This document shows, piece by piece, positions 1 through 20,653 of a stretch of 21,353 bases of DNA. Position 1 is the first letter of the stretch; each line of letters begins with the position of its first letter. Both the position numbers and the translations under genes were made by a program. The stretch is from the UHGV virus genome UHGV-0019869. One strand, written 5' to 3'. A model generated the notes under the pieces. The model was given only the letters and a program-made list of their open reading frames with translations, had not been told where the DNA came from and did no database searches. The stretch comes from a virus.

Positions 1-227
1 ACGCGCATGATAGCCTCATCAATAATAAGGCTTTATGCTAGATGCATTCCGCTTTGCGACTCAACCTTTTTCACCTAAAGGATGACAAAACCACATAAAT
101 AATTTAAAAATCATAGCATTAGATTACTTAACGATTAAATAATAGACTGCAAAACGCGACAAAACACAACATATTCAGTCACTATGAATCAACTACTTAG
201 ATAGTATTAGTGACCTGAGGCAGAGCA

Positions 228-270
228 TTAGCGCAAGGTGATTTTTTGTCCTCTTGCGCTAATTTTTTGT
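228..270 (+). terminator. Candidate rho-independent terminator hairpin (10-bp perfect stem ttagcgcaag / cttgcgctaa, about 15-nt loop, then TTTTTT)
   Basis: Perfect inverted repeat at 228-237 and 253-262 followed by a T-run at 263-268, read directly from the sequence. No ORF of 60 aa or more lies in 1-556. Confidence 0.35.
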
Positions 271-556
271 CAACGGACTGGGTTAGTTGAATTTACAACC
301 ATGCTCAGTATCTCGATAAGCGCAGAGAAATGATGCAGTGGTGGGTGGACTAGCTTAATGGGAAGATTAACCTTTAGTGAGTAATGCAACGAACAAAAAG
401 TTCGCTATTGCAATATCAAAAAACACTTTAGTTATAACTATGAAAATAACCAAACTCATAATGTTGGGTTATCAATAGATTCCCCAACACTATATATAAT
501 ATGTTTAATTATTATTAAATAACTCCGTCACATCGCTATAATAGCGACAGAAGAAA

Positions 557-1156
557 TTATAATTTTCGCTCCCACCTAACACCCTCACGGATGAGTCTCA
601 ATGGTATTCCAGCATAAGATGATGATGGTCTTGATAGTTTTTTACCAACTAATGACTTAGTGCCAATAATACACCCATATGGTATTACAGAACCTTTGTT
701 TATTGTGACACCTTCACCAACCCACACATGGTCTGAGATAACAATATCTTTTGCGTGATTTATCCTCTCTCCACTTTCAATATCAATAATAGGATGCTCA
801 TCTGAAGTTCTAATATAAATAGAACTAGAGAACATGCAATCGTCACCAATTGTAATTGATTTACCTTCCATTGCGAAGAAATGCACACCAGCGGTGGTCG
901 TCCCGCTTCCAATAATTAACTTTGAACTGTTTTGCCGAATATCAATACAGCCTCTTATATTGGCTCTTTTTTTAATATGTAAGGTATTATTCCAACCAAT
1001 GATGTTTATTCTTAAATTTCTAAGAACTACACCTTCATCTATTGTAATTTTATGCCCGCTACCCTGCACATTAACTTTAACACTTTTGTCAATGAGTACT
1101 GATGGATGTACATTTATTTCATTACCACTTTCAAATTCACTGAATATATTTTCCAT
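557..1156 (-). CDS. Hexapeptide-repeat (left-handed beta-helix) acetyltransferase, 199 aa; candidate lysogenic-conversion enzyme
   Basis: The translation shows successive imperfect hexapeptide repeats with small or hydrophobic residues at regular spacing (IGDDCMF, IYIRTSDEHP, ISDHVWVGEGVTINKGSVIPYGCIIGTKSLV), typical of Maa/LacA/WcaF/NeuO-type acyltransferases. Sampled lines are AT-rich. It lies just beyond the tailspike on the same strand. Confidence 0.75.
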   Translation of the reverse strand: MENIFSEFESGNEINVHPSVLIDKSVKVNVQGSGHKITIDEGVVLRNLRINIIGWNNTLHIKKRANIRGCIDIRQNSSKLIIGSGTTTAGVHFFAMEGKSITIGDDCMFSSSIYIRTSDEHPIIDIESGERINHAKDIVISDHVWVGEGVTINKGSVIPYGCIIGTKSLVGKKLSRPSSSYAGIPLRLIREGVRWERKL

Positions 1157-1256
1157 AAAAATATTATCCGCATTACATAAACAGTCATACCAATCGATAC
1201 AATCTATCTCTGGTAGTATAAACGACCTTCCAATTCCATGGAAGATCCATTACACG

Positions 1257-3062
1257 TTATAGGTTTTCGAGTTTGTTCAATCTTTGCTCTAACCCCTCTA
1301 TCCTTGAAAATGCAACATCTATAGCCTTTGTAACAAACGGTATAACCTGTTCGTAGGCAATTGTTTTTACATCGCATCCATTGTTTACTAGATGATCTTG
1401 ATATATACCACAGTCAATTCCAAGTCGATCAAGTAATTCTTTAACTTGCTGTGCAAGATACCCGGCATGTTCTCTTTTCCTTTTTCTACTGCCATCTTTT
1501 TCATGTTGATGAATTCTAGTTTCAAAAATCGGATTGCCATTAGAATCATCACCAATTTTTACATTGTATTCTTCTATATAATCATCACGAAAATCCCACT
1601 TATAAAAATATGGGATTATTCCACGGACGAATGATACAGCAAGTTCTCCGTCTATTATTCGTTTATCTGCTTTATCACGCTCATCAGACCGAGTTTGCAC
1701 CGTACCATATACATAAACTGTCTGAGAAGAATTTCCTAACTGAATCTCATGATCTCCACCAACTCTGGCACGGCAGCCTAAAGCTACACAATTTAATTTC
1801 TCTTTTGCAGGTGTCCCATCAATCAAAAACCTACCAGCTTGATGTCCAAGATATACTAATTGGGTTCCAGTAGTCTCACTATCTCCTGACGCTGCACCAA
1901 CAAAAACATTATCACTTCCTGTTGTTAAATTAAAGCCGGAAGCCCTACCAATAAGAACTGAATCATTCATTTTTGTTGCTTTATATCCTGCTTGCATCCC
2001 ACAAAAAACAACACCATTTAATCCATTCTGTGACCATGCAGCTTGATACCCTATAGCAACAATATTATTGGGAGATTCCCCATATGAAGACAAACCAAGA
2101 GAAGCCTCACGTCCTAGTGCAACGTTTCCAGAACCATCCACATTTCTAAATAAGGCAGAGCGACCTGCAGCAAGATTATTACCGCCAGTTCCCGTCTCAG
2201 CACCAGAGAATGCTCCTATATAGGTATTACCACCACCAGTTGAGTTATTTTGCATTGCTGCTTGACCGACAGCAACGTTATCTCTTCCTGTTGTTGTTCG
2301 TGACCCAGCATCCGTACCAACTGAAACATTTCTCTCTCCTGATGTTAATAGTTTGCCAGCGTTATAACCAACCACTACATTATAACTACCGGTTTTATAG
2401 TTGGCATAAGAAGAACTTTGAGCGTAAATAAAAATATTACAACTACCTGTAGTTAACAGTGCTCCAGCCTCATGTCCAAGTAGAACATTGCGCTGTCCTG
2501 TTGTAAGGCTTGCACCGGCTCGTCTACCAATACCAGTATTTTCCGCACCAACAGCCTCATCTGACTCGTTACCTATAATTGATGATCCTGCTCCAACTCC
2601 GAAAAAAGCATTATTTTTCGCATATTCATTAGAAGAAAATGCATCAATTCCCCATACCGTATTACTTGGGTCAGCATAACCAGGAGAATTTTCACCAGAA
2701 AAATTTGTTAATTCCTGCCTTAACTGATCTGGAGCATATTTCATTACATTTGGGAAATAGTGCTGCTGAGAGCCATACGCATCAAAAATCGCCATTGAGT
2801 GATTTTTTATAGTCGCAAACTTACCGAATTGACCATTCAATACAGGTTGTCCAGCTTGACTTATTTTTATTGGTTGAGAAACCTTAATATATTTTCCATT
2901 CTCATTCTCAAAATAAACATCCACTTGATTATCTGGATTAGTCGGATCGGTATCAGGCTTCCCGATATAAATGCTTCCATTCGATACTGATTTAAATGTT
3001 CTTGACATTGTGAACAATTGATTAGGCATGGAAACTATAATGTTAGGTATAATGTCTGTCAT
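1257..3062 (-). CDS. Mosaic tailspike, 601 aa: P22 gp9-like N-terminal head-binding domain, Gly-rich repeat central domain, C-terminal intramolecular chaperone (peptidase S74-like) domain
   Basis: The N-terminal ~110 aa (MTDIIPNIIVSMPNQLFTMSRTFKSVSNGSIYIGKPDTDPTNPDNQ...HSMAIFDAYGSQ) closely resembles the P22 tailspike head-binding domain. The centre carries repeated G-x-x-A-G / TTG motifs. The C-terminus has SDERDK followed by GYLAQQV and IAYEQVIPFVTKAIDVAFSRIEGLEQRLNKLE, matching the autoproteolytic chaperone domain of endosialidase and T5 pb1-type fibres. GGAG RBS upstream of the ATG at 3062. Confidence 0.9.
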   Translation of the reverse strand: MTDIIPNIIVSMPNQLFTMSRTFKSVSNGSIYIGKPDTDPTNPDNQVDVYFENENGKYIKVSQPIKISQAGQPVLNGQFGKFATIKNHSMAIFDAYGSQQHYFPNVMKYAPDQLRQELTNFSGENSPGYADPSNTVWGIDAFSSNEYAKNNAFFGVGAGSSIIGNESDEAVGAENTGIGRRAGASLTTGQRNVLLGHEAGALLTTGSCNIFIYAQSSSYANYKTGSYNVVVGYNAGKLLTSGERNVSVGTDAGSRTTTGRDNVAVGQAAMQNNSTGGGNTYIGAFSGAETGTGGNNLAAGRSALFRNVDGSGNVALGREASLGLSSYGESPNNIVAIGYQAAWSQNGLNGVVFCGMQAGYKATKMNDSVLIGRASGFNLTTGSDNVFVGAASGDSETTGTQLVYLGHQAGRFLIDGTPAKEKLNCVALGCRARVGGDHEIQLGNSSQTVYVYGTVQTRSDERDKADKRIIDGELAVSFVRGIIPYFYKWDFRDDYIEEYNVKIGDDSNGNPIFETRIHQHEKDGSRKRKREHAGYLAQQVKELLDRLGIDCGIYQDHLVNNGCDVKTIAYEQVIPFVTKAIDVAFSRIEGLEQRLNKLENL

Positions 3063-3129
3063 TTAATTTGCTCCAGATACAAGGAATCGCCGCAGCATGG
3101 CTACGGTTGGTATTTGTTTGGTTTTTGAA

Positions 3130-3198: not shown

Positions 3199-3222
3199 AA
3201 AAAAACCCAGCCTAAGCTGGGT
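3199..3222 (-). terminator. Rho-independent terminator downstream of ant (stem cccagc / gctggg, 4-nt loop, 7-nt U-run on the minus strand)
   Basis: GC stem-loop at 3206-3221 directly followed on the minus strand by the run complementary to AAAAAAA at 3199-3205, about 20 nt after the ant stop codon. Confidence 0.6.
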
Positions 3223-3240
3223 CGTTGCGTTGGTTATCTG

Positions 3241-4976: not shown

Positions 4977-5696
4977 ATGAAAAAAAGTAATGGACTCACA
5001 TTAAAACTTGACGGAACCACCCCTGGCCAGCTGTCAATGGCTAAGTTGGTCAAGTATATGTCTGCTCTCGTAGATCTATACGGTTCTGCAGATTCTGTTC
5101 ACTTCGACTGTGTAAGTGAAGGATCGGCTGACTTAAATGCATGGGTCGATAATGATATTTGTTATAACGCTGTCATAGCAAGGGCCTCTCTCTCAGCCAA
5201 AGAGAAATCACCCGCGTATCAAAAAATTGTTAATTTACTGGAGCATGATGGTTTTTCAGCGAAACTACTCGGACGAAACCACTCAACCATTATCGCATTC
5301 CCGCGAGTAAAAAAGGAGCCAATCCCTTTACTCATAACAAAAACGTCAGAAGTTCAAGGAAGGCTATACAGTGTTGGCGGAAAAGACAACTCAATACCTG
5401 TGCGTATTGAGGGAGCCAACGGTGAAACATTCAAGTGCGAGGCAACCCCTGATTTGGCGGCAGCTCTTGGGTCCCATCTATTCAAATATATTAGGGTTAA
5501 AGGAGATGGGTGCTGGGAAAAAAAGAACAACAAATGGGAGCTAAAGAAACTAAAAATAACTTCATTTGTATTGCTCAAAAAATCATCACTCAAGGATGCT
5601 ATTAATGCTATCAAGCAAGTTCCTGGAGATCAGTGGTCCGAGGAACGCGATGTTGATTCAATCCTTAGGACTCTGAGGAAGATAAATTGCGAGTAA
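4977..5696 (+). CDS. Hypothetical 239-aa protein, first gene of the accessory cassette downstream of mnt
   Basis: Long ORF in a markedly AT-rich segment (about 30% G+C in a sampled line, against 40-63% in sampled structural-gene lines). Its 3' end overlaps the next gene's start by 10 nt. No recognisable catalytic motif. Weak RBS. Confidence 0.65.
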   Translation: MKKSNGLTLKLDGTTPGQLSMAKLVKYMSALVDLYGSADSVHFDCVSEGSADLNAWVDNDICYNAVIARASLSAKEKSPAYQKIVNLLEHDGFSAKLLGRNHSTIIAFPRVKKEPIPLLITKTSEVQGRLYSVGGKDNSIPVRIEGANGETFKCEATPDLAAALGSHLFKYIRVKGDGCWEKKNNKWELKKLKITSFVLLKKSSLKDAINAIKQVPGDQWSEERDVDSILRTLRKINCE

Positions 5697-6235
5697 TTTT
5701 AGATACCAATATTCTGGTATACCTACTATCAGATATAGAACACGATTATAGATTATCTGACCCTATACTTGGTTCTGAGATTCCAGATGCCAAAAGAAGA
5801 GCAGAAGCTCTTGTTGATCGAATAGATAACAAGAACGGGACAATCATCGTTCCAACTCCTGTATTGGCGGAGTTTTTAGTTGGAATCCATAAAGATTACC
5901 AACAAGAAAAACTGAATGTTATCAAATCGTTATCGTGCTTCGAAACTGTATCATTTGATGAGTTGGCTGCTATTGAATGCGCATCGATACCAACATTAAA
6001 AGAATTAAGGAAAATTAGCACAGAAGGTACAGCAAACAAAATTAAGTTTGACAGACAAATAATAGCAATTGCAAGAGCAATTAATGCTGACGAGGTATGG
6101 ACTCATGATAAGGGAGTGTTTGAGCGTTGCAAAAGTCTCAATATTCCTGTGTTCACATTATCATCAATAGAACCAATTCCGGTTCAAAGTCTCATGGAGT
6201 TCTTACACGATTCAGACGATCAGAGATTACACTAA
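5687..6235 (+). CDS. PIN-domain nuclease-like protein, 182 aa (TTG start)
   Basis: The N-terminal ILDTNIL motif with an invariant Asp, and downstream acidic residues (AEFLVG; FDRQIIAIARAINADEVWTHDKG), are typical of VapC/PIN folds. The TTG at 5687-5689 is preceded by GAGGAA at 5675-5680. Confidence 0.75.
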   Translation: MRVILDTNILVYLLSDIEHDYRLSDPILGSEIPDAKRRAEALVDRIDNKNGTIIVPTPVLAEFLVGIHKDYQQEKLNVIKSLSCFETVSFDELAAIECASIPTLKELRKISTEGTANKIKFDRQIIAIARAINADEVWTHDKGVFERCKSLNIPVFTLSSIEPIPVQSLMEFLHDSDDQRLH

Positions 6236-6590: not shown

Positions 6591-8710
6591 CTGTCACTAG
6601 CGAGCCATGTAATAATCCCCGTGCGGGCAATGGTTTTTGCTTCATCTGTTGATAAGGTTTTCTCCCATCTCTTAAATGCCCCAGATTGCATCAGTTTCCT
6701 TTCTATTACGCGTCTCACTTCTGCTCTGTCTACAGGTGCGTTTTGCAGGCGAAATAGCATTGATTTAAACTCAGGAGAAGACAGTAGAGCATCAGCAGCC
6801 TTTATCCTGCTTGTTTTCCCTGACATCAATGCTGACGTTATCACCCCTGTTGCACCTACACCAGGAAGACCAGATAAGCTTGTAATACCTTCCGCCGCAG
6901 CAGCTTTTGAGGCTATTCCATAAATTTTTGCGAGACTACCCTTTTCTTTCAGAAAGTTATTAACTTGCTGATCCACAAGACTACTAGCATACTGCTTACC
7001 AGTATTGAGTCTATTCATAGCCTTAGCTGCTTGATAAATCGTATCAAGGCGCTTTGATGCATCTGTGCCAATAGCATCACGGAGAGCCTTCATATTGGCC
7101 CCATTGCGTGACATTCCGTTATACCATTTTACAAATCCATCAACCCCTAATTGCTGACCTGGTGATTTAGCATAGCTGGTAAATGCTTTATTCATTGAGG
7201 TGAGCGCAACTTCCTGCCGCATATCCTTTGGAATTGACTTCATTAATTGCCTAAAGTCACCACCGTTTCCTTTTGCCATATTAACAACGGCACTTTCAAC
7301 TTTTGGAATTGCTGATTGCTGAAGTTTTCTACCCAAAACGGTTACGGCATCATCTTCAATGGATTTTCGTGTTTTTACCAACTCCTTACCAAGCGTCCAT
7401 AACTCCCCTGCGCCATATTTTTCTGCGACAGCCTGTTGGTCATCTGTTATAGCCGCATATAACTTTTTAAGAACACCTGTTTCTTCATCCTTGAATGGGC
7501 CAGAGCCTTTGCCAATAGCTTGCCCAACCTGCTTTCTAGCGAGATCTAAACGCCCATACGTTGGCAAGGTGTTTGGATCAAGTCGGTTCAATGTCCGCTT
7601 CATTATTGGAGATAATTCATCAATTCCACCTATATCATCAGCAAAATCCTCTAAAAAATTCAATGTATTAGTTGCCTCAATCCGGTCTCTTACAGGAACC
7701 TTTTCGGCAATTTTGTTGTAGATGTTATCTGACTGATTTTGTAATGATGAAATGGTTTTATCAAAATTATCTGCAAGCCTGTCAGAAACCAGTTGCTTAT
7801 CAAGGCTTCCCCCAAATGAAGTTATCATTTCATCAGCTTTTCTTCCTAATTCAGTAATAAAACGCTTATGCGCCTCACTAATCTCTGTTCCAGGGAGACT
7901 TGCCACTGCATTATCAAGAGCCCTGACAGCAGGATTATTAGAGATCATGCCTGGAGTGGCATAATTTTCCAGTTCTAGCTCACGAATAGCATTTATCGCG
8001 TTAAAATCAGGATTAACTTCATCGGCGAAATCTTGAATAGCTCGTTGCCCGCCGATAAATTTATTGTCCATTGCGCCAGCAGCTTTCTTTAACGTTGCTT
8101 TAGATGATTTACTACCCATCCCTACGGATGAGCGATAAATATCTCCGGCACTATTTTTAATTTTTCCTGCAATCTTCCCAAGAGCTGGACCAACAATCTC
8201 TGCTACAGGGCCAGCCACAGCGCCAATAGCAGCTCCAGAAGCAACATCGCTATTTGTTCCATTGGCTACAATAGCCCCTTCTCCAGCACCAAGCCCTGCG
8301 GCGGCAGCCAGCCTTGCCGCCCCTTTCGGAACCTGAGAAATAATCCCACCACCACTAACAAATGGTGCTGCTTGTCCAACGAACTCACCAACATCTTGTA
8401 CGGTTGATGGTTTTGCCGCTAACTTCTGCTGTAGAGACTGAATTGCGGCTTGCTCTTCTGGTGTCATATCCTGAAATAGACCAACACCTTTACCAACATC
8501 CATCAATCCACTGAGAACGCCATACATAAAACGGTCGAAACCGTTAGCATTATTAACAACATTTTCCTGTCTGGAATTTTCCTCTGGTGAAACCAAAGGA
8601 GATTGCTGCTGTTCTGGTTGGGCATCAAGCACAAAGCCATCAGGAAGCTGTGAGTTATCAGGCTGTTCATCCAGAACAAATCCCTCTGGTAAACCTACAT
8701 TGGTTGCCAT
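6587..8710 (-). CDS. Ejection (DNA transfer) protein, P22 gp16-like, 707 aa
   Basis: Last gene of the late operon, in the gp7-gp20-gp16 order. Gly/Ala-rich central region; N-terminal duplicated LP(E/D)GFVLD(E/A)QP motif. Confidence 0.8.
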
Positions 8711-10044
8711 TGTCCGTTCCTGTAAATAATTTTCTGACCAGTTTTAGGATTTTTCGCGGTCATACCTTCTCGAAATGTTTGACCGCCAGATGTTGCTTGT
8801 TGTGTCTGTTGTTGCGCAGGCTGCTGAATATCTTCATACAGCTTGGCTTTTCTGGATTGCAATTGCTTAGTTAGTCCGCTGGGGAGAGAATCTCCATAAG
8901 TTGAAAGATAATCATCCATTTGCTGGTTAAACTTTTCGCCTTCAGTATTTGCCATCAGTTTTGAGGTGTTGATTAAGTCTTGGACTTGCTCATTATTCAG
9001 CATCTTGCCGTTAGATAATTGGCTAACATAGTTACCAAGTGTGCCGAATATTCCATCAGTGCGTTTTACCTGCACTTGCTCACCTTCGCGTACCACAGAT
9101 TGCGGATCCAGCGATTTCATATAGTTGAAAATCATTCCCAACTGCGCGGCTGGAGTGTTGCGCTTCCCAAGGGCTTGTAGGTTGTCAGAAGCACTGCGCA
9201 TTGCAGAATAATTCTTTGAGAACCCATTAATATCACTATTCAGATCTCGAACAAGTTTTGGGTCAATCTTTCCGCTTTCCTGTTGTTTCATCCCTAATTC
9301 CTGCAACTTCAGGGCTACGTTATCATTATGCATTTGTGCCCGCTGAGCCCTGTCTAGTTGAGCGTTTTGGATATTTGCCCATCCTCTCGCGTTCTCCATG
9401 TCAGCCTGACGGATGCTTTCATCCAATCGCCCTTTCTCAAGTTGGCGACCAACCATCTTATCCTGATAATCCAGCATTTTATCCGGACCAACAGCCCCTA
9501 GCGTCATAGTAGTCAGCATGTGTGATAGCTGCTCTGGATTCTGGATACCTGTCTGAATCATCCAGTCAGCATTAGCACCAACGCGATTTAACCTGTCCTT
9601 GTTGTCAGTAATGAATTTACTGTAGGCTTCCGGTCCCTGAGAAAGAGCGACGTTAGCCCTCATGGCTAAATCGCCCATATCGTTACGTTGCTGCTCATTA
9701 AGACCGGAAAACGCCTGTTGTGCCTGTGCAACAAACGCTGGATTTTCCTTGGCAAACTTAAATAGTCCCGATGGATCACCAGAAGCCCATGCATCAGCGT
9801 GAACCTTATTGAACGCACTAATCGCTTTCTGTTGCTGTTCCTGATTGTAAATATCAGCAACTCCAGCCAGACCACGTAACGCGGTCAGACCAACGTTATT
9901 TGCACCTGAGCGAGCCAGTTCATTGTTTTCGCGGATCAGACCAAGCGTTGCGTTAATGTCGCTTGCCTTTGGCGCATTCTCGTTTTGCGCACCAATGCCA
10001 GCCAGAAAACCACCAGAATTAATACCCTGTTGCCACGTAGCCAT
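8695..10044 (-). CDS. Ejection protein, P22 gp20-like, 449 aa
   Basis: Position and size in the conserved P22-like order; Gln/Ala-rich product overlapping the neighbouring genes. Confidence 0.8.
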
Positions 10045-10054
10045 TGATTACCCC

Positions 10055-10747
10055 TTAAAACAACGAGCCAAGCAGACCAAGACCGCCGCCGATCGCAGCC
10101 CCCCACGGAGTTGATGAACCAATTAATTTCGCAAGTCCGGCCCCAGCAATAGCACCAGACGCACCTCCGCCAATAGCAGATTGCATTGCTGATGGTCTGT
10201 TGGCATTTGCCGCTGCAAGAGCCGCACTTTGCTGCGAAATCTGACTCATGTTGTTGGCATATGTCTGCCCTGCGTTTGCCTGACCTTGCAGAGCACCAAG
10301 CCCAACGTTTGCCAGATTCTGGTAGTTGTTCATCTGACCAGACAGCCACTGCTGACCAAGCGTTGGTGCGATTGTTGCTAACTGATTACCGGTTGCAGTG
10401 GAACCCAATCCACCTGTTGCTTCCGCTGCCGCCAGACTCTGATAGCGAGCCTGACCAGCAAGATCTTTGTACTGCTGAGAGTTGTAATACTGGTTAAGTG
10501 CCTGACCTTGCCCTTCCAGAGACGATAAGTTCTCGAGGCTGCCGACATACTTATCAGCCAGAGGAGTAAACGGCTTCAGGTTGTTCATGATGGTGTTGAA
10601 CTGCTGATTTTGCAGGTCTGCTGCATACTTCTGAGCTTTTGCTGCATACTTTGCGCTTTTATCAGAGCTGCCACCTTTCCCGCCTTTTTCAGGGCAATAA
10701 GGTTCCTCGCCGCGCAGTTTTCTGCCCAGCTTAAATGCATATAACAT
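10055..10747 (-). CDS. Ejection protein, P22 gp7-like, 230 aa
   Basis: Size and position match P22 gp7 (about 229 aa); Gly/Ala/Gln-rich. Confidence 0.8.
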   Translation of the reverse strand: MLYAFKLGRKLRGEEPYCPEKGGKGGSSDKSAKYAAKAQKYAADLQNQQFNTIMNNLKPFTPLADKYVGSLENLSSLEGQGQALNQYYNSQQYKDLAGQARYQSLAAAEATGGLGSTATGNQLATIAPTLGQQWLSGQMNNYQNLANVGLGALQGQANAGQTYANNMSQISQQSAALAAANANRPSAMQSAIGGGASGAIAGAGLAKLIGSSTPWGAAIGGGLGLLGSLF

Positions 10748-10749
10748 GG

Positions 10750-11208
10750 CTATCTCCCGTGATTCAGGAAGTCGATTAGTTCTTCGCGTGTTGCGCTGTA
10801 AAACGTCACGTCATCCACGCCTTTGAAGTATTTCTTGATGGTTCCTACACGCTTAAGGCCAATCATTGCGCAGTACATCTGACCGTGGCGGAATTTGCGC
10901 GCAGCGAACGATGTGACGCACTGAACGGTGGTGTTAGTCAGAATGTATCGCCAGAACGCCAGACCGATTTCCTTGCTGAATCCGCGAACCTCTGGCAGGT
11001 ACATGGCGTGGCAATCGAATGTCAGCGGCTGAATCTCCTGATAGTAAACAATGCCGCCGAACTGCCCGTGCACATTCACCTCAAAGTAACGGCAATCAGG
11101 TTTGTAGTCGTATCCATCACCGTTGTTGCTCCCGGCGATAATGTCAGGGTGATTTCCTACGGCTTCTATCAGGTCGATGTTTCGCGTTGGTTTGAACTGA
11201 ATCATCAC
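10750..11208 (-). CDS. P22 gp14-like protein, 152 aa
   Basis: Conserved position between the tail needle and gp7-like genes. The start ATG overlaps the upstream stop (ATGA). Confidence 0.75.
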
Positions 11209-12158
11209 TGCTCCGCGATTATCTTGATGGTTGTGGCAGTAAACGCCGCACCATTTGACTGAATGGTTAACGTGCTGCCATTTGTGGCAAGAAAGCCGTC
11301 TTTATCCACGCTGAAGAACGTAGCTAACAGGATGTTATCGGTTGTTGTCGCCGAGTTGCGACTGCTTACCAGTGTGTCAGGAACAGATCCGGAAAAGGTT
11401 AGCTGCATTGACCTGTTTGCGGTTCCGCTGGGCCACGTCCCGACAATCGACAGCTTGAAGAACAGGGTTTTGTTCTCGTTGAAAACAACCATCTTGTTGT
11501 TATCAGTATCGAAGAATGGTGCCAACGTCCCGGATGACGGCGTGAGCGTTTTCAGCAGGCTAACAAGGTTGGTCGGCGCTGTTGGAATGGTTACCGATAC
11601 TCCTGAGTAAACAACCTCTGATTTCTTGCGCGTGGTGGCATACTCAAGCGCAGATATTCTTGTTGAGTGATCACCAACTGTGCTTTGTAGCGTCGAAATA
11701 CTTCCCTCTGCCGCTGTGAGCCTGGTATCAAGTGCGTTGATATCGGTTGTATTCTGAGTTATTCGCGCATCATGGTTTGCTAACTCAGATTCATTGGCAG
11801 CAATTCGCGTCTCGTGATCAGCCAGCTCTGTTTCGGCAGCCGTAATCCTTGTTTCATGATCTGCAAGAGTGCTTTCCGCTGCTGCGATTCTATGTTCATG
11901 ATTGACGAGAATTGCTTCAGCAGCAGCAATTCTTGATTCATGGTCTGCAAGAGTGACATCCTGCTCATCATTCTTCACCTGTGCATCATAAGCCCCCTTC
12001 CCTGCTTCGTTGGCCTTGTTAGCCACGTTACCAACATCAGCACCCTGTGCGATAACGTACAGCAGATATGACTGCGAGAAGATATTGCGTGGAAGGACTG
12101 ATGTGTCGAGTCGTGTAGCCTGAATGATTACCGGCTCATTGAGATTCGAATCAGCCAT
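11205..12158 (-). CDS. Tail needle (P22 gp26-like) with extended C-terminal knob domain, 317 aa
   Basis: The N-terminus [43 protein letters not shown]...[13 protein letters not shown] resembles P22 gp26. It is followed by five tandem 14-aa coiled-coil repeats (ADHExRIAAAE-type) and a C-terminal domain of roughly 170 aa that P22 gp26 lacks. Confidence 0.88.
11753..11960. repeat. Imperfect 42-bp tandem repeats (about 5 copies) inside the tail-needle gene, encoding the trimeric coiled-coil heptad repeats
   Basis: Repeated units of the type gcagcagcaattc...catgatc(a/t)gcaagagtg are visible in the DNA and correspond to the repeated LADHE(S/T)RI(A/T)AAE peptides. Confidence 0.6.
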
Positions 12159-13576
12159 TACTCGATCCTTATCTGGCAGCCTGACAGAGTGACAGGTGAC
12201 TTAGTGATAACGCGCAATTTGAAGCCGACATTTTTCCTTATTCGCCCGACGCGCTTCCACAAAACGCGTTTGTCGTAAACGAACGGTTCATTCTGCTCAA
12301 TCATCTGCTCACGCCCGTAATTGATGCCGTCAGTGGTTGCAGAGAGAAAAAGGCGGTCGGCGTACTGCGCAACGCCAGTTGACGATTCAACCTCAAAGTC
12401 AAACACTCTGGCGTTATCCGCTTTGAACAACGGAGTAAACAGCAGGTGTTCCTGCTGCTTGTCGTACTGGCTGCTGATATCGAACTGCAATTTCCCGGTC
12501 ACCGATTCCAGCTTATCGCCGCACGTTATCTGATTTCCTTCGTAAATGAAGTCGATAGCGCGGTACACATCGTCATACAAGCCTGTTTTCAGTACACACC
12601 ATTGCGGACCATTGGCGCTTGAAGATGCGTCGTAAACAAGAACATGGCGCGGAAGGTGGATAATCAGCAATTCATGAGCATCAAACCGCAACGATTCCAT
12701 CACGCCATCAGCCAGTTCATCAGCAGTGTAGGAGCGGAGGATTTTCTCAATGCTCGCGCTGGCGATTGGTGATACCTGACCTGATCCGATGATGTATACA
12801 GACGGCGCACCCGTTGCCGGATTGCTGATAAACGCATACGAATCAGCAAACGGCGTTTTGCAGTAAGTTCCGGCAATGCCTTTCTGCACCATCAGCGATG
12901 GCTGTGCGACATACAAAGCGGCACCAACGGTGGTTGCCCCCGTCAGGGAGAAATATTCAATCGTCGATGAACCAAAGCAGACGATGAAGTCTCGCCATGT
13001 TCCGATGCCGATGATGCCGTCAGGCTGAGACTCGGCACGATATTGTGCGCTGTAACGGTCAGGATGTGATTCGTCTTCAAGGTCAGTGATAAACCATGAA
13101 TCAGTTCCGTCTTTTGACCACGCATAACGCCCACGTAAGCGCGTAATATCGCGGACTGAACCTAACTCATACTGAGTGAATCCGCTGTCTGTAGGCCAGT
13201 TTGAGACTGTTTTAACCGTGCCATCATAGCGATACTCGACCAGTCGACCATTAACGCCTACCGCCTGTGATGTCCGACCATGCGCCATTGATACACGACC
13301 ACTTCCGGCGACATCACCGACTTCGCTTTCGCCTTTGTAGAGCTTGCCGCCACACACACGATAAACAGCATTCTGCGCCATGTTGTACTCGACGCCGCGC
13401 GATACGCCGTTTACATCAGAGCGTTTGGCAATGCCCGGGAATGAGCGAAGATATCCGCTGCTGTTGAGGATTTCTTTGGGTGTAGCCAACATATTCACTG
13501 GCAGATAGTCGATATAGTCGGCGTTTCGAAAGTCTTTGCCGACACCTTTCATAAGCGGAAGTTGCTGAATTGGCAT
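12158..13576 (-). CDS. Head-completion / tail hub protein, P22 gp10-like, 472 aa
   Basis: Same length as P22 gp10 (472 aa) and the conserved position after gp4. Confidence 0.85.
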
Positions 13577-13585
13577 TTATTCACC

Positions 13586-14047
13586 TCACGTACTCGAATC
13601 ATCTTTCTCGATGTAAAACCGATTCCACGTAAACGCGCTTTTGTTACCACTACCGCGAGGCATGTCATTTCGCCGCTCAAGTGGTGGTATTTTGGTTAAA
13701 GCGATACAGATTGTTTGATATGCACTGTCAGCAGCGGTAAGGAGAGCGTCTGACGGCTGAATGACGTTATCCATGCACACTTGCACAGCGAGTTTCAAAG
13801 CGACGCCATCATTTGCCCATGCAGGGATACCTGAATCATCGTCAGGTAACGGCATGATGCCGTTTTCTGTATCAGCAAACTGATACCCAAGCTCGATACC
13901 TTTCTCCTGCCATGCTGCCATCATGTCTTCGAGGTCATTAATGGCATCTTCAATTGCCTGAGGGTCAGCATCTATCAACGTGGCATTGGAATACAGCCCG
14001 GCTTTTCGTAAAGCCTTAAGAACGAGATCACCCTTCGTTTTCGCCAT
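13586..14047 (-). CDS. Head-completion protein, P22 gp4-like, 153 aa
   Basis: The N-terminus MAKTKGDLVLKALRKAGL resembles P22 gp4 (KTKGDLV...ALRK). Conserved position. Confidence 0.85.
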   Translation of the reverse strand: MAKTKGDLVLKALRKAGLYSNATLIDADPQAIEDAINDLEDMMAAWQEKGIELGYQFADTENGIMPLPDDDSGIPAWANDGVALKLAVQVCMDNVIQPSDALLTAADSAYQTICIALTKIPPLERRNDMPRGSGNKSAFTWNRFYIEKDDSST

Positions 14048-14216
14048 CTTCTTCCGCCTTAGCCACTTTTTGCTTCGTTGCGGTTTCTTCAGGGGTTTTT
14101 ACCCAGCCTTTTTTCAGGTGAGATTTAACTTCTTCGTCATCAACAATGATGTAATCGACAGCAAACTGACCACAGGTGATCATGTTGCCAGGCTTATAGA
14201 GCATTGTTCGTGCCAT
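14028..14216 (-). CDS. Small conserved hypothetical protein between the coat and gp4-like genes, 62 aa
   Basis: The ATG at 14214-14216 is preceded by GGGAGAAG. P22-like phages carry a small ORF at this position. The ORF track's longer 74-aa version starts inside the terminator hairpin. Confidence 0.5.
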   Translation of the reverse strand: MARTMLYKPGNMITCGQFAVDYIIVDDEEVKSHLKKGWVKTPEETATKQKVAKAEEDGENEG

Positions 14217-14227
14217 TGTCTTCTCCC

Positions 14228-14250
14228 AATAAAAATGGGGCCGAAGCCCC
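14228..14250 (-). terminator. Candidate partial terminator or attenuator hairpin immediately after the coat gene (GGGGC stem, UUCG tetraloop, then AUUUUUAUU)
   Basis: ggggccgaagcccc at 14237-14250 with an A-run at 14231-14236 on the plus strand, which is a stem-loop plus U-run when read on the minus strand just downstream of the coat stop. Confidence 0.45.
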
Positions 14251-14257
14251 ACTAAAA

Positions 14258-15511
14258 TTACTGCCCGGCAATAACGATGCCCGTATATTCAGGAACCAGT
14301 ACAGAGCAACCGTACAGAGTGGTGAAACGCGCAGTGGTTACGCCTTTGATATGGTCGAAGGCGTAAGACATGATCAGCGTAGCGCCCTGCTCGGTGGTTG
14401 CTGTCATTACCTGTGGACCCTGACCAGTCGGGAACGCCAGTTTGCCGTACATCAGTTCAACAGAACCATCAGCCCAGAACAGGTTAGCCGGTGCGGCATT
14501 TTTGTTGAGAATGGTAATTGCTGCACCATTTGCCGCGTTAGCATCAACGTTTGCATATGGACGGCTGGCGACATCTGCGTTGTCAGGCGGCAGAATTTTC
14601 GGGGAGATAGTTACTGTCGTTCCGCTTACTGCCAGAACGCGGAATACCTGCGGCTGCCCGGTGGTGTCTTTGGTGATCTGGTGTACAGAATTCACGCCAG
14701 CAATGGTGAACGCATCGCCAACCTGCAACCCAGATGCAGATACCGTAATAGTCCCCTGTCGGTTATCCACTGGCATATCGTTGGCATCTTTCGCTTCAAC
14801 CTTGTGCGCAGGTTCAGCCGCCAGCGTCAGGGAAGTTGCTGTACCCTTCGGAACACGACCAGAAATATCGGTCTTGTAGCTATCGAAGGACGCAACAGGA
14901 GGGATCTGCGCTTTTTCGTATGCTGTCAGGGTTGCGCCCTGAGCATAGGCACGGTGACCAAGCTCGCCAGCAAGGTCTTTGTAGTTGAAGGGGTTCCAGA
15001 AAGAGCGGCGGTTGATACCCTGTGGTACACCAATCGCCGTCATGGTGGCATCAATGCCTGCCGCACAGTTCCACAAATCACGGCCCTGTGAACCAGTGGT
15101 TGAGTCAGCCATTGTGATCACGTTAGTAGCACGCTGCGTGACCATGGAAATCAGGTCAGAGTCAATCTGTGCAGCAAGGCGCATACCTGCGGCGCGACCA
15201 GCTTCAGTTTTATGTTCCGGGTCACGCATTTCACGCGCATCCAGAGTGTACAGAATGTTTTTCGGCTCCTTGAACACAGAAGGAACAAGGCGCTGAACCA
15301 GTGCTGTTGGCGTTTTGCTGCTGAGGTCGAGGCCTTCCTCAATGTTCATGTGGTAATGCTGCGGACGATACAGAACATCACCTGCTCGCTGCATTGCTGT
15401 ATCACCGGGACGGAATTTTTTAGCGTTACGGGAAACTACGCAGGCGGCCTCAAAGCCTTCAACGTAGTTTTCGAACATGATTTCAAGGTCTTTTGCTAAT
15501 TGGTTAGCCAT
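14258..15511 (-). CDS. Major coat protein, P22 gp5-like, 417 aa
   Basis: Position after the scaffold gene and size. Local matches to P22 coat (MQRAGDVLYRP against MQRSSNTIWMP; FWADGSVELM against FWADDAIRIV). Confidence 0.88.
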   Translation of the reverse strand: MANQLAKDLEIMFENYVEGFEAACVVSRNAKKFRPGDTAMQRAGDVLYRPQHYHMNIEEGLDLSSKTPTALVQRLVPSVFKEPKNILYTLDAREMRDPEHKTEAGRAAGMRLAAQIDSDLISMVTQRATNVITMADSTTGSQGRDLWNCAAGIDATMTAIGVPQGINRRSFWNPFNYKDLAGELGHRAYAQGATLTAYEKAQIPPVASFDSYKTDISGRVPKGTATSLTLAAEPAHKVEAKDANDMPVDNRQGTITVSASGLQVGDAFTIAGVNSVHQITKDTTGQPQVFRVLAVSGTTVTISPKILPPDNADVASRPYANVDANAANGAAITILNKNAAPANLFWADGSVELMYGKLAFPTGQGPQVMTATTEQGATLIMSYAFDHIKGVTTARFTTLYGCSVLVPEYTGIVIAGQ

Positions 15512-15529
15512 GCTTAATGCTCCGATAGG

Positions 15530-16423
15530 TTATTTTTTTGCCTTTTTAGCGGCGAAATACGGCGTCCAGTCACCAGTTTCCAGCACCTTGGCTTTCAGTT
15601 TGTCGAGGTTATTGATTACTGCGCCGTTGCTCCCCTTAACTGTCGGGGTTGTGGCTGCCGTGGTTTTTGCTTTTGGCATGATTCTGGCCTTAGATTCGAT
15701 ACGTTCCAGCAGACGACCAATTGCTACGGGGTTGGTAGCTTCTGCCAGTTGCTTGCGCAGTTCAGCGTTGCGGCCGAGTGCCAGAACAACGATTTCCGGC
15801 TTCTCTGACTCAAGAAGGATCATGTCCTGAATGTGAACAGGAACATCTTCGCGTACAGCCTGCTCTGCATCTTGGTAGCCAGCCACTTTCAGTGCTTTTA
15901 CTCTATGCATGTAATTGGCTGCTTTCTGCTGAAGCGTTGCGGTACGCGCCTCTTCCTCTCGTTTCCGCTCTCGTATTTGCTCCTGGTACTTGCCGTTATC
16001 CTCTGCCCACTTAGCCATGCGTTGCTGATAGATTTCTTCATCGAAACCGATGTCCTCATCATCCAGTTTTGGCATTCGCGGTGGTTGAGTGATTACCGGC
16101 TGCTGCTCGACGGGTTTCTGAGACTGACGCATCAGCTCTTTCAGCTCGCGGTCTTTCTCTTTAATCGTCTTGCGCAGGTGTTTTACCAGTCCATGCTCTG
16201 CGCTATCTTCACTGGTTGGCGAATCCAGCTTTTCGTCACCAAAGTAGAATTCCTGTTCTGATTCGTCGTCATCAGTTTCAGTAGCTTCCTCTGCATCATT
16301 GCCGGAGGACTCACTGCCATCTTCTGTTTCGACTTCTTCAGCCAGTTCGACATCATCAGGAATCTGCTCTGACGCGTCGGTTTCGATTTCAACTTCTGGT
16401 GTGTTTTCTGCCATCTGGTCCAT
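15530..16423 (-). CDS. Scaffolding protein, P22 gp8-like, 297 aa
   Basis: Acidic N-terminus, charged coiled-coil middle and basic C-terminal tail. Conserved position between portal and coat. Confidence 0.85.
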   Translation of the reverse strand: MDQMAENTPEVEIETDASEQIPDDVELAEEVETEDGSESSGNDAEEATETDDDESEQEFYFGDEKLDSPTSEDSAEHGLVKHLRKTIKEKDRELKELMRQSQKPVEQQPVITQPPRMPKLDDEDIGFDEEIYQQRMAKWAEDNGKYQEQIRERKREEEARTATLQQKAANYMHRVKALKVAGYQDAEQAVREDVPVHIQDMILLESEKPEIVVLALGRNAELRKQLAEATNPVAIGRLLERIESKARIMPKAKTTAATTPTVKGSNGAVINNLDKLKAKVLETGDWTPYFAAKKAKK

Positions 16424-16513
16424 TTGTTACCCCTGTTTACTCGATGTTCAGCCCATCGGAAGGCAATAGGGTGCCAGGCCTCATAAAGACAGCCATTGCA
16501 CGTTATGGGTTAA

Positions 16514-18712
16514 TTACTGCTGTGGTTGTTGCTGAGTTGATTTTTGCAGGATGCTGCTGATGTCCATGCGCTGCGCATGTCCCTGTGCCTGACTTTTCAG
16601 GACAAGCTCTGCATCAGCACGGGCATTGTCTCCTTGCTGTTGCTGGAACTGTCCGAGCAGTTTCAGAGCCTCGCGGATATCAGATTTCTGCTGGCTATCG
16701 GCAGATGCGAGGATTTTCACAACGTTTGCCGCTGCAACCTGAGCATCAGTCTGTGCCTGGAATGCTTTAACCTGAATGGCTGCCTGTTCGTTCTGCGCTT
16801 TCTGCAATTCAGCCTGACCAGCAAGAAGCTGACCTTGCGCTGCAACCATAGCCGGATCTGGCTGACTGGCCTGTTGTTGTTTCGCCTGTTCAACCATCTG
16901 CTGTTCTTCAGGCGTTCTCGGCTTGATAACGCCAGACAGAAGCAACTGATTGCGGTTGTATTCTTTCAGGTCGTCCATCCCTTCGCCGTCCATATTGTCG
17001 AGAATCATCGACGATACAAGGTCATGCTTCGGCGTTCCTGGCGGGATAAGTGCCAGCATGGAAAGTAACGACTTAACCGTTGCATCACGGCGAGTAGCGA
17101 ACGACTGACCAACATCGACAGTCACTTCATAGTTACCCTGCGAAAGGTCGTTAAGCGCGATAACCTGCCCTGTCTGACGGTCAATCACTTCACCAGTCAT
17201 CAGCGCCACGTCATCGCTGCCGTCCTCATTAACGATGCGCATTGGCGTATCGCTGCCATAGACCTCACGCGCCATAGAAAGCCACACAACGCCAGCGCGG
17301 CGCATGGATTTAGCCATGTTGTCCATGTAGATATAGGACTGCGTGTCCATCCTGTTAAAGATGCTATCAACGGTATCGGTGGCGACGTTGCTCGGCATGT
17401 TCTCAAGCTGCGACGCACCTGTAATTTGCTGAATAGCCGTTCCGGTGTACTGCAATAGCCCGGCAAGAGCTGGCGGCATTTGTGTCGGAGGCGTATAACT
17501 GCTGACCTGAGCCTGCGCAGTAATATCTCCGTTTTTGTTTTTCAGACTGACCATCGGCAGGAACGCCGGGCGCTTTTTGTTGCGCTCCGCCCAATGAGTG
17601 GCAAGAGGACCAGGAATCATGTCAACATCAACTACAGGAATGCCATCGCCGCCAGCCTGAGTGGCGTTATCTGCAATCATGGAAACCATCAGGTTCTCAA
17701 GACGCTGTGCATCCATCGCTTTTGCAGCGTGGCCTTCGATTCGCTCCTGATTATCAACAAATGAGCGACGCCCATATACCGGGATGAGAGGAATATGTTC
17801 ACCCGGAATACGCTTCGGTTCTTCCAGCCATTCAGCGCCAGACAGAAGACCGCAATAAACGCGGCGTTTCTTCACTGTCCGCTCGCCAATCAGTTCGAAT
17901 GCGCCATCGGTCAGCTCGTCGACAATATCTTTGATTTGATATTCATCATAGATTGCCGTTTCTCCGCTAACAGGGTTACGCCATGCTGTGAGCTTCACCT
18001 TCTCTATGCGAACTTCGTAGTAGCGACCAACATAGATAGCATCAGGAGTTGACCAGTCATATTGAGTGCCAGTGTCATCACGAGAAAGGCTTGCCGCGAT
18101 GGAATCAGGGTATTCAGCCTCGAACGCTTTAGGCGTCATGGAGAACATTTCCATAGCCCACATAGCATCAGAGCGGTCATATTGCTTGCTGTCCTGATCG
18201 AAGAAGACGCATGTCGCTGGGTCGTAAACAGGAAGAAGGCTGATGCGTCGCTGCTCGTTACTCGGATCCATTTCATCTTCGTAATCGGCACACATGCGGA
18301 AACAACCGAATCCGCCCGTTACAGCATCATCAAATGCGTTATCACACGCTTCGCCACCGGATGTTTCCTGATAATCAGCGCGGAATTTGCCGTTCATCTT
18401 TTCGGCTAACGCTTCCGATGCCTTATCGTCCTTCGGTCTGAATTTAACGCTGATGCGATTCTGTCGATACTCGCCAATGATGCGATCACATTCACGGGCA
18501 ATCTTATTCAGTTCAAAGCGCGGATAATGCTCAAACCTGCCTTCATCAAATGAGTAACCAGCGTTTGTGCTGCCTTCCCACTGTGCGCCGGACACCCTGA
18601 CGAAGCGTTGAGCTTCTATAATCTGCTCACGCATATCCTGCGTTGCTGACCAGGCATTATCAAAGTTGCACAGCACCTTGCGATGCCAGTCAGTCATCTT
18701 TTTTTCTGCCAT
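16514..18712 (-). CDS. Portal protein, P22 gp1-like, 732 aa
   Basis: The C-terminal region PEEQQMVEQAKQQQASQPDPAMVAAQGQLLAGQAELQKAQNEQ aligns with the P22 portal [42 protein letters not shown]. Length matches (about 725 aa in P22). Confidence 0.93.
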   Translation of the reverse strand: MAEKKMTDWHRKVLCNFDNAWSATQDMREQIIEAQRFVRVSGAQWEGSTNAGYSFDEGRFEHYPRFELNKIARECDRIIGEYRQNRISVKFRPKDDKASEALAEKMNGKFRADYQETSGGEACDNAFDDAVTGGFGCFRMCADYEDEMDPSNEQRRISLLPVYDPATCVFFDQDSKQYDRSDAMWAMEMFSMTPKAFEAEYPDSIAASLSRDDTGTQYDWSTPDAIYVGRYYEVRIEKVKLTAWRNPVSGETAIYDEYQIKDIVDELTDGAFELIGERTVKKRRVYCGLLSGAEWLEEPKRIPGEHIPLIPVYGRRSFVDNQERIEGHAAKAMDAQRLENLMVSMIADNATQAGGDGIPVVDVDMIPGPLATHWAERNKKRPAFLPMVSLKNKNGDITAQAQVSSYTPPTQMPPALAGLLQYTGTAIQQITGASQLENMPSNVATDTVDSIFNRMDTQSYIYMDNMAKSMRRAGVVWLSMAREVYGSDTPMRIVNEDGSDDVALMTGEVIDRQTGQVIALNDLSQGNYEVTVDVGQSFATRRDATVKSLLSMLALIPPGTPKHDLVSSMILDNMDGEGMDDLKEYNRNQLLLSGVIKPRTPEEQQMVEQAKQQQASQPDPAMVAAQGQLLAGQAELQKAQNEQAAIQVKAFQAQTDAQVAAANVVKILASADSQQKSDIREALKLLGQFQQQQGDNARADAELVLKSQAQGHAQRMDISSILQKSTQQQPQQ

Positions 18713-18713
18713 A

Positions 18714-20129: not shown

Positions 20130-20653
20130 TTTCCAAATAGAGTGCTCATCGGTGATGTTTCAATCTGAATTGCGCCGCCGTCTTTGCCTGTTAATTCGTG
20201 AGAAGCTTGTTCTTTAAACGCCTGAACAGAAACATGCTTACCAAGAAGTTCGAGGTTTTTAACCTTATCAGGCCATTTGATTTTCTTCAGAAGTGCGGCG
20301 CTATCTGCGGATACCATCTCCACGACATCCATTCCTGATAGCGTTGTGCGCCATACCTTAGGCCAGTCTTTAATTGGCTTTAACTCGCCGTTTTGCAGGA
20401 GAATGTCGAGCACATCCATCTGGTCGATTTCAATAAGGCGATTAAGTACATATTCTGCGTTAATACCAACAAGATCATTGCGTTGCGCTTTCAGTTCGGC
20501 GATTCTTAACTTGATGTCATGTTTTGACAGGTTTTCGGATGCGGTACGGTTAGCTGTCTTTGCGCTGTACCCCGCCCGAATAGCCGCTTGCGTGGCGTTT
20601 AAATCGATGAGGTACTCGCGACAGAACATTTCTTGTTTGTCGGTGAGTGCCAT
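20126..20653 (-). CDS. Terminase small subunit (P27 / Terminase_2-like family), 175 aa
   Basis: The N-terminal LTDKQEMFCREYLIDLNATQAAIRAGYS motif is characteristic of this small-terminase family. ATGA overlap with the TerL start. Confidence 0.85.
   Translation of the reverse strand: MALTDKQEMFCREYLIDLNATQAAIRAGYSAKTANRTASENLSKHDIKLRIAELKAQRNDLVGINAEYVLNRLIEIDQMDVLDILLQNGELKPIKDWPKVWRTTLSGMDVVEMVSADSAALLKKIKWPDKVKNLELLGKHVSVQAFKEQASHELTGKDGGAIQIETSPMSTLFGK

Follow-up and report, generated by a model that had tools for sequence, protein, structure and literature searches.

A P22-like prophage tailspike with a predicted adhesin-type solenoid and a putative self-cleaving chaperone, associated with a rare group 2 capsule of Escherichia coli

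The tailspikes gp9 of phage P22 and gp14 of phage Sf6 are trimeric spikes in which a head-binding domain is joined to a right-handed β-helix endorhamnosidase, and neither has a cleavable chaperone. Phage CUS-3 of Escherichia coli K1 possesses a spike, SiaK1, with an anchor of the same P22 type; its receptor domain is an endosialidase, its C-terminus is a self-cleaving chaperone, its target is a group 2 capsule, and its gene lies between ant and neuO, the latter encoding a hexapeptide O-acetyltransferase. The fibre tip of phage T5, pb1, binds polysaccharide without hydrolysing it and is matured by a peptidase S74 chaperone. The subject of the present study is the tailspike gene situated at positions 1257..3062 (minus strand) of the UHGV virus genome UHGV-0019869; the term window is used below for the whole of that stretch, 21,353 nucleotides in length. 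The open reading frame begins with ATG and contains 601 codons and a stop, and its translation gives a precursor of 64.6 kDa. The RefSeq entry for the identical protein (WP_021572783.1) is named only 'phage tailspike protein'.

The locus shares with P22 and Sf6 the head-binding domain, the genomic position and the expected role of a trimeric spike. CUS-3 is the nearest characterised system. The order ant, tailspike, hexapeptide O-acetyltransferase is the same, and the anchor, the chaperone, the type of capsule target and the phage-borne O-acetyltransferase all have their counterparts here, whereas the endosialidase of CUS-3 is unrelated in sequence to the receptor domain of this spike, and the two systems are unlike in capsule type and in integration site. 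As a polysaccharide binder that does not hydrolyse its ligand and is matured by a chaperone, T5 pb1 comes closest in function. Its distal domain has an intertwined, bullet-shaped fold of a novel kind on a siphovirus fibre, while that of the present protein is a predicted solenoid on a podovirus spike.

The tailspike is built of three exchangeable modules, all encoded on the minus strand. These are a P22-type head-binding (virion-attachment) domain (residues 1–113; window 2724..3062), a Gly-rich repeat domain that is the putative receptor-binding domain and is predicted to form a left-handed parallel β-solenoid (residues 134–458; 1689..2663), and a C-terminal intramolecular chaperone of the Peptidase_S74 family (residues 459–601; 1260..1688). 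The anchor and the receptor-binding module are connected by a linker and mosaic junction, placed from the limits of homology at residues 114–133 (2664..2723). Modular P22-like spikes and self-cleaving chaperones are already well known, and this architecture alone is unsurprising. The reading that we consider probable goes further, and combines the three-module P22-like spike with an adhesin-type solenoid, a self-cleaving chaperone and a receptor that is most probably a rare group 2 capsule, that of the porcine extraintestinal pathogenic E. coli (ExPEC) strain PCN033.

The head-binding domain was matched by Pfam model PF09008 (Head_binding) at residues 1–113, with an E value of 1.5e–50 and over positions 1–113 of the 113 in the model. 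When the whole protein was searched against the sequences of the Protein Data Bank (PDB), matches to Sf6 gp14 (7sg7, residues 1–121) and to P22 gp9 were confined to the N-terminus, ending at residues 117–121, and no match was found past residue 121. SiaK1 is 65% identical over residues 1–125, with nothing significant beyond, and the DNA homology to H46, another P22-like prophage of E. coli, extends only as far as window position 2721, which corresponds to codon 114. Alignments to homologues of the receptor-binding domain that possess other N-terminal adaptors (P0002–P0008) begin at approximately residue 134. Because the P22-type homology ends at about residues 114–125 and these homologues start at about residue 134, residues 114–133 represent the mosaic joint. 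Residues 118–128, which are the first 11 residues of the structural model described below, were predicted with a pLDDT below 50. Phage N7 was considered as a relative matching as far as residue 226, and was rejected; its spike is an ordinary right-handed Beta_helix protein, and only the anchor is held in common.

The repeat domain is distinguished by its composition and periodicity. Glycine accounts for 16.5% of residues 131–458, and a BLOSUM autocorrelation revealed a peak at a lag of 17 residues (z=10.3 versus 300 shuffles), with echoes at lags of 34 and 51. Some 18 units of 17 residues could be laid out on the pattern G-x-x-N-x-x-x-G-x-x-A-G-x-x-x-T-T. Neither Pfam nor NCBIfam contained a family covering the centre of the spike, and NCBIfam gave no match for the spike at all. 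An AlphaFold2 monomer model of residues 118–601, built on 67 homologues, had a mean pLDDT of 83.4 and a pTM of 0.73. In this model, short strands recur at an exact spacing of 17 residues, and the coils are joined by short turns, without inserted loops or subdomains. The best structural matches of the repeat-domain model were non-enzymatic adhesin heads, those of CbpF, BoaA and EibD among them, and Foldseek, run on the same model, agreed in matching the left-handed solenoids of CbpF and YadA. Right-handed tailspike depolymerases could be aligned to the model only with a root-mean-square deviation of 11–13 Å, and no Beta_helix or pectate-lyase Pfam match was obtained for the spike. An initial annotation of the window, made without database searches, had described a Gly-rich repeat domain unrelated to the P22 endorhamnosidase and preceded by only about 110 P22-like residues, and had proposed a Foldseek search of the centre. 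The composition and period, the absence of PDB matches past residue 121, the poor fit of right-handed helices and the end of H46 homology at codon 114 uphold that description in each respect.

On the strength of the model, the fold is predicted to be a left-handed parallel β-solenoid, closest to the roll of YadA-like heads of trimeric autotransporter adhesins (TAAs). Within the wider family, the homologue P0057 passes the Pfam YadA_head model, and the family profile reaches the EibD head with an E value of 0.013. The layers of canonical TAA heads comprise 14 residues, or 15 in UspA1 (PMC9543794). Coils of 14–15 residues are likewise found in the heads used for comparison (BpaC 7o23, UspA1 3pr7, YadA 1p9h, EibD 2xqh and CbpF), as opposed to 17 in the spike, which does not display the motif of 14–15-residue layers with Gly at position 1, Asn at 3 and Gly at 8. 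The spike also differs from TAAs in having no membrane anchor, neck or stalk, and its trimerization is expected to depend on a cleavable S74 chaperone instead of autotransport. Twelve members of the repeat family were sampled; Pfam does not recognize their repeats, no autotransporter anchor is present in any of them, and in eight the C-terminus is Peptidase_S74. Since the anchor and the 14-residue motif are absent, the spike is not classified here as an autotransporter adhesin, and the likeness is one of fold only. Our literature searches found no description of a phage spike joining a YadA-like roll to an S74 chaperone.

These features bear on whether the spike would bind its receptor or degrade it. 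Because the predicted fold is adhesin-like, the turns are short and the repeat domain has no conserved polar residues, we lean, by a modest degree, to a spike that would bind capsule without degrading it; an enzyme is clearly the less favoured option. The alternative that survives best retains the same architecture and a capsule receptor and supposes that the repeat domain is a depolymerase (hydrolase, lyase or phosphodiesterase) with its active sites at inter-subunit clefts. In its favour, a group 2 capsule does seem to be the receptor, and those capsule-specific spikes that are known to have a chaperone of this kind are enzymes, as exemplified by the CUS-3 endosialidase. Moreover, five acidic residues, D168, E174, D251, D261 and E319 (D51, E57, D134, D144 and E202 in alignment numbering), are invariant in the close family. 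Across the 67 homologues, however, invariance in the repeat domain is restricted to glycine, and no polar residue shows it. The structural matches to non-enzymatic heads and the absence of loops or subdomains inserted in the coils also argue against an enzyme, as does the failure of Pfam and NCBIfam to detect any depolymerase or glycosidase family. T5 pb1, furthermore, provides a precedent for a chaperone-processed fibre that binds polysaccharide without cleaving it. We therefore view a depolymerase as possible but rather doubtful. As the centre is predicted to be an adhesin-type left-handed solenoid, a test of the purified protein for depolymerase halos, which the initial annotation had suggested, may well be negative.

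The identity of the receptor is suggested by the company that the tailspike gene keeps. Adjacent to it, at window 557..1156 (minus strand), is a gene for a 199-residue hexapeptide O-acetyltransferase of the NeuO/OatWY family, a putative capsule-modifying lysogenic-conversion gene, as judged from PDB matches and synteny. The best of those matches were the polysialic-acid O-acetyltransferases NeuO (3jqy, 2.8e–31) and OatWY (2wlc, 7e–31). The protein is 38–40% identical to the NeuO of CUS-3, the gene of which is placed in the same way with respect to the spike, and the homology extends over the full length. The D-x-H-P and W-V-G motifs, which we take to be the catalytic residues of NeuO, are present in both, SDEHPI and VWVG aligning with SDGHPI and VWVG. 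The heptanucleotide (AAGACTC) phase-variation repeats that are found in the neuO of CUS-3 were sought in the acetyltransferase gene, and none was found. The next-closest homologue in E. coli, 52% identical over its full length, is encoded in region 2 of a group 2 kps cluster, beside a 1150-residue HAD-family polymerase. By analogy with NeuO, the acetyltransferase would acetylate the capsule of the host in lysogens. As a separate observation, the gene is intact in the window, which therefore derives from a genome lacking the IS2 that splits the gene in strains LC-1302-2020 (L002 3771–4999, NZ_CP091756.1) and MMC-J-0105 (NZ_CM128543.1); in the latter, a second, intact copy of the cassette described next is located approximately 1.6 Mb away.

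The tailspike and acetyltransferase genes travel as a cassette (window ~314..3098, defined by genome matches), which is common, at ~99% identity, to different prophage backbones and integration sites. The matches extended over window positions 1–3098 in EC5931 and OZ039848, 2–3077 in CM2 and 314–3098 in WWCOL-236. The spike receptor module was found in seven of 5426 complete E. coli genomes, and the acetyltransferase, at an identity of at least 98.8%, in exactly the same seven. The genes adjoining the spike differ between these prophages, and the prophage of WWCOL-236 is situated next to dacD/sbmC instead of torT. The torC–torT segments of four groups of carriers differ by 2.0–2.8%, whereas their spike proteins differ by only 0–3 residues. 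The divergence at torC–torT, the differing neighbour genes and the two integration sites indicate that the carriers do not constitute one clone.

The carriers nevertheless have a capsule locus in common. In NMBU_W05E18, region 2 of the group 2 kps cluster begins with a polymerase that is 55% identical to the 1150-residue protein mentioned above, and there is no acetyltransferase gene inside that region. A 7.5 kb region 2 of this type was detected in only 12 of the 5426 genomes (0.2%), and these include six of the seven carriers of the cassette (hypergeometric P=1.8e–16). In the seventh, OZ039848, kpsF-E-D-U-C-S is followed directly by IS1 and gss (L070 20565–22479, NZ_OZ039848.1), an arrangement that indicates deletion of regions 2 and 3. 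OZ039848 differs by 0.03% at torC–torT from EC5931, which keeps its capsule locus, and may represent a lineage that lost its capsule under exposure to a phage specific for it. The IS1-associated deletion also removed the adjacent gsp genes. As judged from the sequence of the locus, the capsule type of the carriers is that of PCN033, and is referred to here as the PCN033-type K locus; the kps region 2 of PCN033 was reported to be unlike those known (PMC4578781). With regard to a name for the K antigen, PCN033, prophages and acetyltransferases are all absent from the main text of the K-locus paper, and Pfam and NCBIfam searches of region 2 returned generic domains only. Two related but distinct, rare group 2 K loci (L064 11484–19005, NZ_CP042878.1; L061 6920–11101, NZ_CP022279.1) were noted; each encodes a polymerase of about 1150 residues with Capsule_synth and HAD domains, these being 55% identical, and one of the two loci has an acetyltransferase gene of its own while the other does not.

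The capsule is the likely receptor because all of the carriers of the cassette either have the same rare K locus (six of seven) or have lost it (one of seven), an arrangement that recalls CUS-3 with its endosialidase and NeuO. The initial annotation had anticipated a receptor different from that of P22, probably a capsule or an O-antigen, and the linked NeuO-like gene and the single rare K locus favour the first of these. An unlikely alternative is that the receptor is O-antigen, lipopolysaccharide core or an outer-membrane protein, in which case the link to the capsule would reflect the ancestry or ecology of the hosts and the acetyltransferase would be an unrelated moron. TAA-like heads do often bind proteins, and the lysogen OZ039848 has no capsule genes for regions 2 and 3. 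Against this, the near-identical cassette occurs in at least four chromosomal backgrounds 2–2.8% apart, at two integration sites and in prophages with differing backbones, and yet every host has, or once had, the one K locus. In addition, the gene linked to the spike belongs to a family of capsule O-acetyltransferases, and the closest of its relatives in E. coli is located within region 2 of a kps cluster.

The C-terminal module was identified by Pfam model PF13884 (Peptidase_S74), which matched residues 459–548 of the 601 with a score of 24.1 bits, the gathering cut-off being 22. The motif SDERDK occupies residues 459–464 and thus provides the S-D-x-R-x-K arrangement, with a lysine five residues after the serine, as in T5 pb1. 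Ser459 (codon at 1686..1688, minus strand) aligns with position 1 of the S74 model and is the predicted nucleophile, so that the scissile bond would be Arg458|Ser459; Lys464 (codon at 1671..1673, minus strand) is, from its conservation and from the spacing in T5 pb1, the predicted general base. Ser459, Asp460 and Lys464 are invariant in the 67 homologues (Ser and Lys being S342 and K347 in numbering from residue 118), and Arg462 is nearly so. In the monomer model, the module consists of a long β-hairpin and a C-terminal helix of about 30 residues (residues 570–600), which have their counterparts in T5 pb1 in the 'tentacle' and the trimeric coiled coil, respectively. Foldseek matched the model, with probabilities of 0.99–1.00, to the intramolecular chaperone auto-processing domain of MyRF (7dc3), the chaperone of the K1F endosialidase endoNF (3gw6) and the chaperone of the GA-1 appendage (3gud), with TM-scores on the target of 0.53–0.67 for 7dc3 and 3gud and ~0.32 for 3gw6. 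Profile matches were obtained to S16 gp37 (6f45, 1.3e–7) and MyRF (1e–4).

In T5 pb1, the bond Thr1263–Ser1264 is cut, Lys1269 activates the serine, and the serine departs with the chaperone (PMC4690869). The same authors found that uncleaved pb1 does not block T5 adsorption in competition, and proposed that the chaperone masks the binding site. By analogy, autocleavage of the present spike would occur at Arg458|Ser459 through Ser459 and Lys464. As the serine leaves with the chaperone in pb1, the released piece would be S459–L601, 143 residues with a computed mass of 16.7 kDa, and the mature chain of residues 1–458 would be 47.9 kDa. The S74-type chaperone, the SDERDK motif and the codon of Ser459 had all been placed exactly as found here in the initial annotation; the length of 142 residues that it gave for the released portion is to be corrected by one. 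That the module is instead a degenerate S74 relic which stays on the mature spike, perhaps as a knob at its distal end, is very unlikely, for although the Pfam score is marginal and the residue before the serine is Arg, versus Thr in T5 pb1, the invariance of Ser, Asp and Lys would not be expected of a relic, the full set of fold elements is predicted at high confidence, and homologues score as much as 55 bits in the S74 match.

A pathway consistent with these data can be proposed for the favoured reading, that of a capsule-binding, chaperone-matured spike. The precursor would trimerize via the C-terminal helix of the chaperone, which would then template folding of the solenoid from its C-terminal end, and the three left-handed solenoids, packed round a threefold axis, would form both the shaft of the spike and its receptor-binding surface. 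Cleavage by Ser459 and Lys464 would yield the 47.9 kDa mature chain and the 16.7 kDa fragment, and the head-binding domains would plug the mature trimers into the tail hub. In P22 there are six tailspikes per virion. The surface of the solenoid would bind the PCN033-type capsular polysaccharide, and in lysogens the NeuO-like O-acetyltransferase would modify that capsule, in parallel to the modification of K1 by NeuO in CUS-3. We infer the geometry of the trimer, the binding of capsule and the effect of acetylation from the comparisons given above.

Several points weigh against this reading. A short-tailed phage of capsulated cells normally has a depolymerase, which a spike that only binds would not provide. 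The association with the capsule is correlative, and the relatedness of the hosts was sampled at a single 3 kb locus, with WWCOL-236 and MMC-J-0105 not placed. The S74 match exceeds its cut-off by only 2 bits. The structure is a monomer prediction of what would be a trimeric fibre, and the 17-residue repeat departs from the 14–15 residues of TAA heads; the spike has no Pfam YadA_head match of its own. When a profile of the repeats only was compared with the PDB, weak matches to hexapeptide left-handed β-helices were obtained (best E value 0.003), and none to TAA heads. The subtype of the solenoid is therefore uncertain, and homology to TAA heads cannot be established from sequence alone.

The repeat domain belongs to a very large family. 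Residues 131–458 were searched against 1.84 billion representatives of clusters formed at 50% identity, and matched 34,229 clusters at E≤1e–3 and 11,449 at E≤1e–10. Many of the matched proteins are 2,000–5,700 residues long and contain many matched stretches, up to 26 in the set P0121–P0265. Structural matches in BFVD were to proteins of phages and giant viruses, labelled 'intramolecular chaperone auto-processing domain' or 'FhaB-like adhesion protein'. In a scan of one genome per species, the spike protein as a single query gave no match; when the scan was seeded with an alignment of eight sequences, relatives with identities of 29–42% were found in genomes of Pseudomonadota, Bacillota, Chloroflexota, Bacteroidota and Fusobacteriota. 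Relatives in cultured phages include gp2.52 of Bacillus phage SPO1, which has relatives of its own, and a protein of Aeromonas phage 62AhydR11PP, which have the same repeat domain and S74 chaperone at 35–37% identity over residues 192–601.

The module is also found with different virion types. The homologue P0002, with the same repeat domain and S74 chaperone at 82% identity, has its receptor module behind a Tail_spike_N adaptor, in a 72 kb contig with SU10-type portal and adaptor genes (L003 4482–9935). On sequence grounds, a P22-like prophage and an SU10-like phage genome to which it is unrelated thus appear to have one receptor module in common. The same contig encodes a second spike nearby, pectate-lyase-like and 1057 residues in length. 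At 50–73% identity, the receptor module is found behind still other adaptors. The homologues of the SPO1, Aeromonas and P0002 types differ from the present spike in their N-terminal adaptors, which are Tail_spike_N, pectate-lyase-like or End_N_terminal, and in their virions, and our literature searches found no experimental characterization of SPO1 gp2.52, the 62AhydR11PP protein or P0002-type homologues. Other P22-like prophages encode spikes with the head-binding domain, the same type of repeat and the chaperone (P0010, P0016 and the E. coli protein P0017). With such related spikes in other P22-like prophages, and the module in an SU10-like contig as well, the architecture is not unique; in the phage collection, no sequenced phage covers at least 80% of the spike protein or has the full combination.

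A broader proposal, which we advance tentatively and consider less likely than not, is that 17-residue left-handed solenoids joined to S74 chaperones make up a class of adhesin fibres of viruses, very large and so far without a name, that shares ancestry with TAA heads. In the present case the class would be represented by a non-enzymatic, capsule-binding podovirus tailspike of P22 type, paired with an O-acetyltransferase that switches off the receptor of its own phage in lysogens. A short-tailed phage would then cross a group 2 capsule without a depolymerase. For the receptor fold we found neither a solved structure with recognizable sequence similarity nor a Pfam model, and no experimental work on it; it nevertheless recurs in over 11,000 protein clusters of phages and giant viruses. 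The link to the capsule is a new hypothesis of a phage–receptor pair for a rare group 2 capsule of ExPEC strains such as PCN033, and, if it is correct, the pair could serve in capsule typing or phage targeting. The locus would also be a second, independent arrangement of the CUS-3 type, in which a capsule-specific spike is accompanied by a capsule O-acetyltransferase, and this would suggest that modification of the receptor is a general strategy of temperate capsule-specific phages.

The whole window represents the late region of an E. coli prophage of the P22-like (Lederbergvirus) type. Its open reading frames agree in size and order with the morphogenetic operon of P22, which runs through terminase, portal, scaffold, coat and gp4/10/26-type proteins to the ejection proteins. 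Downstream of the ejection genes is an immI-like region with arc, mnt and ant, followed by the spike gene, in synteny with CUS-3. The window is 100% identical to E. coli LC-1302-2020, except for the IS2 in the gene downstream of the spike in that strain, and 99.1% identical to NMBU_W05E18; in both strains, the prophage adjoins torT. A short C-terminal remnant of a tyrosine integrase is annotated by RefSeq between torT and the acetyltransferase gene (window ~291–377, plus strand). The G+C content is 35–42% in window 1–3062, which includes the acetyltransferase gene and the whole of the spike gene with its conserved head-binding part, as compared with ~50% in the structural genes (8695–20653).

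The spike gene is bracketed by two terminator-like hairpins, both on the minus strand. One, with a 9 bp stem, lies just 3′ of the tailspike stop codon (1224..1247) and was identified by a consensus scan; the other follows ant (3204–3223). Both are pattern matches only. A promoter scan gave a result no better than that for shuffled sequences. In the immI region (window 4977–6235, plus strand), a gene for a 239-residue protein of unassigned function overlaps that for a 182-residue PIN-domain protein, and the pair may be a toxin–antitoxin or defence moron; PADLOC gave no match for this pair or for the acetyltransferase. In other prophages the cargo of this immI slot is different; in NMBU_W05E18, for instance, it includes a ClpP-like protease and a YafO toxin.

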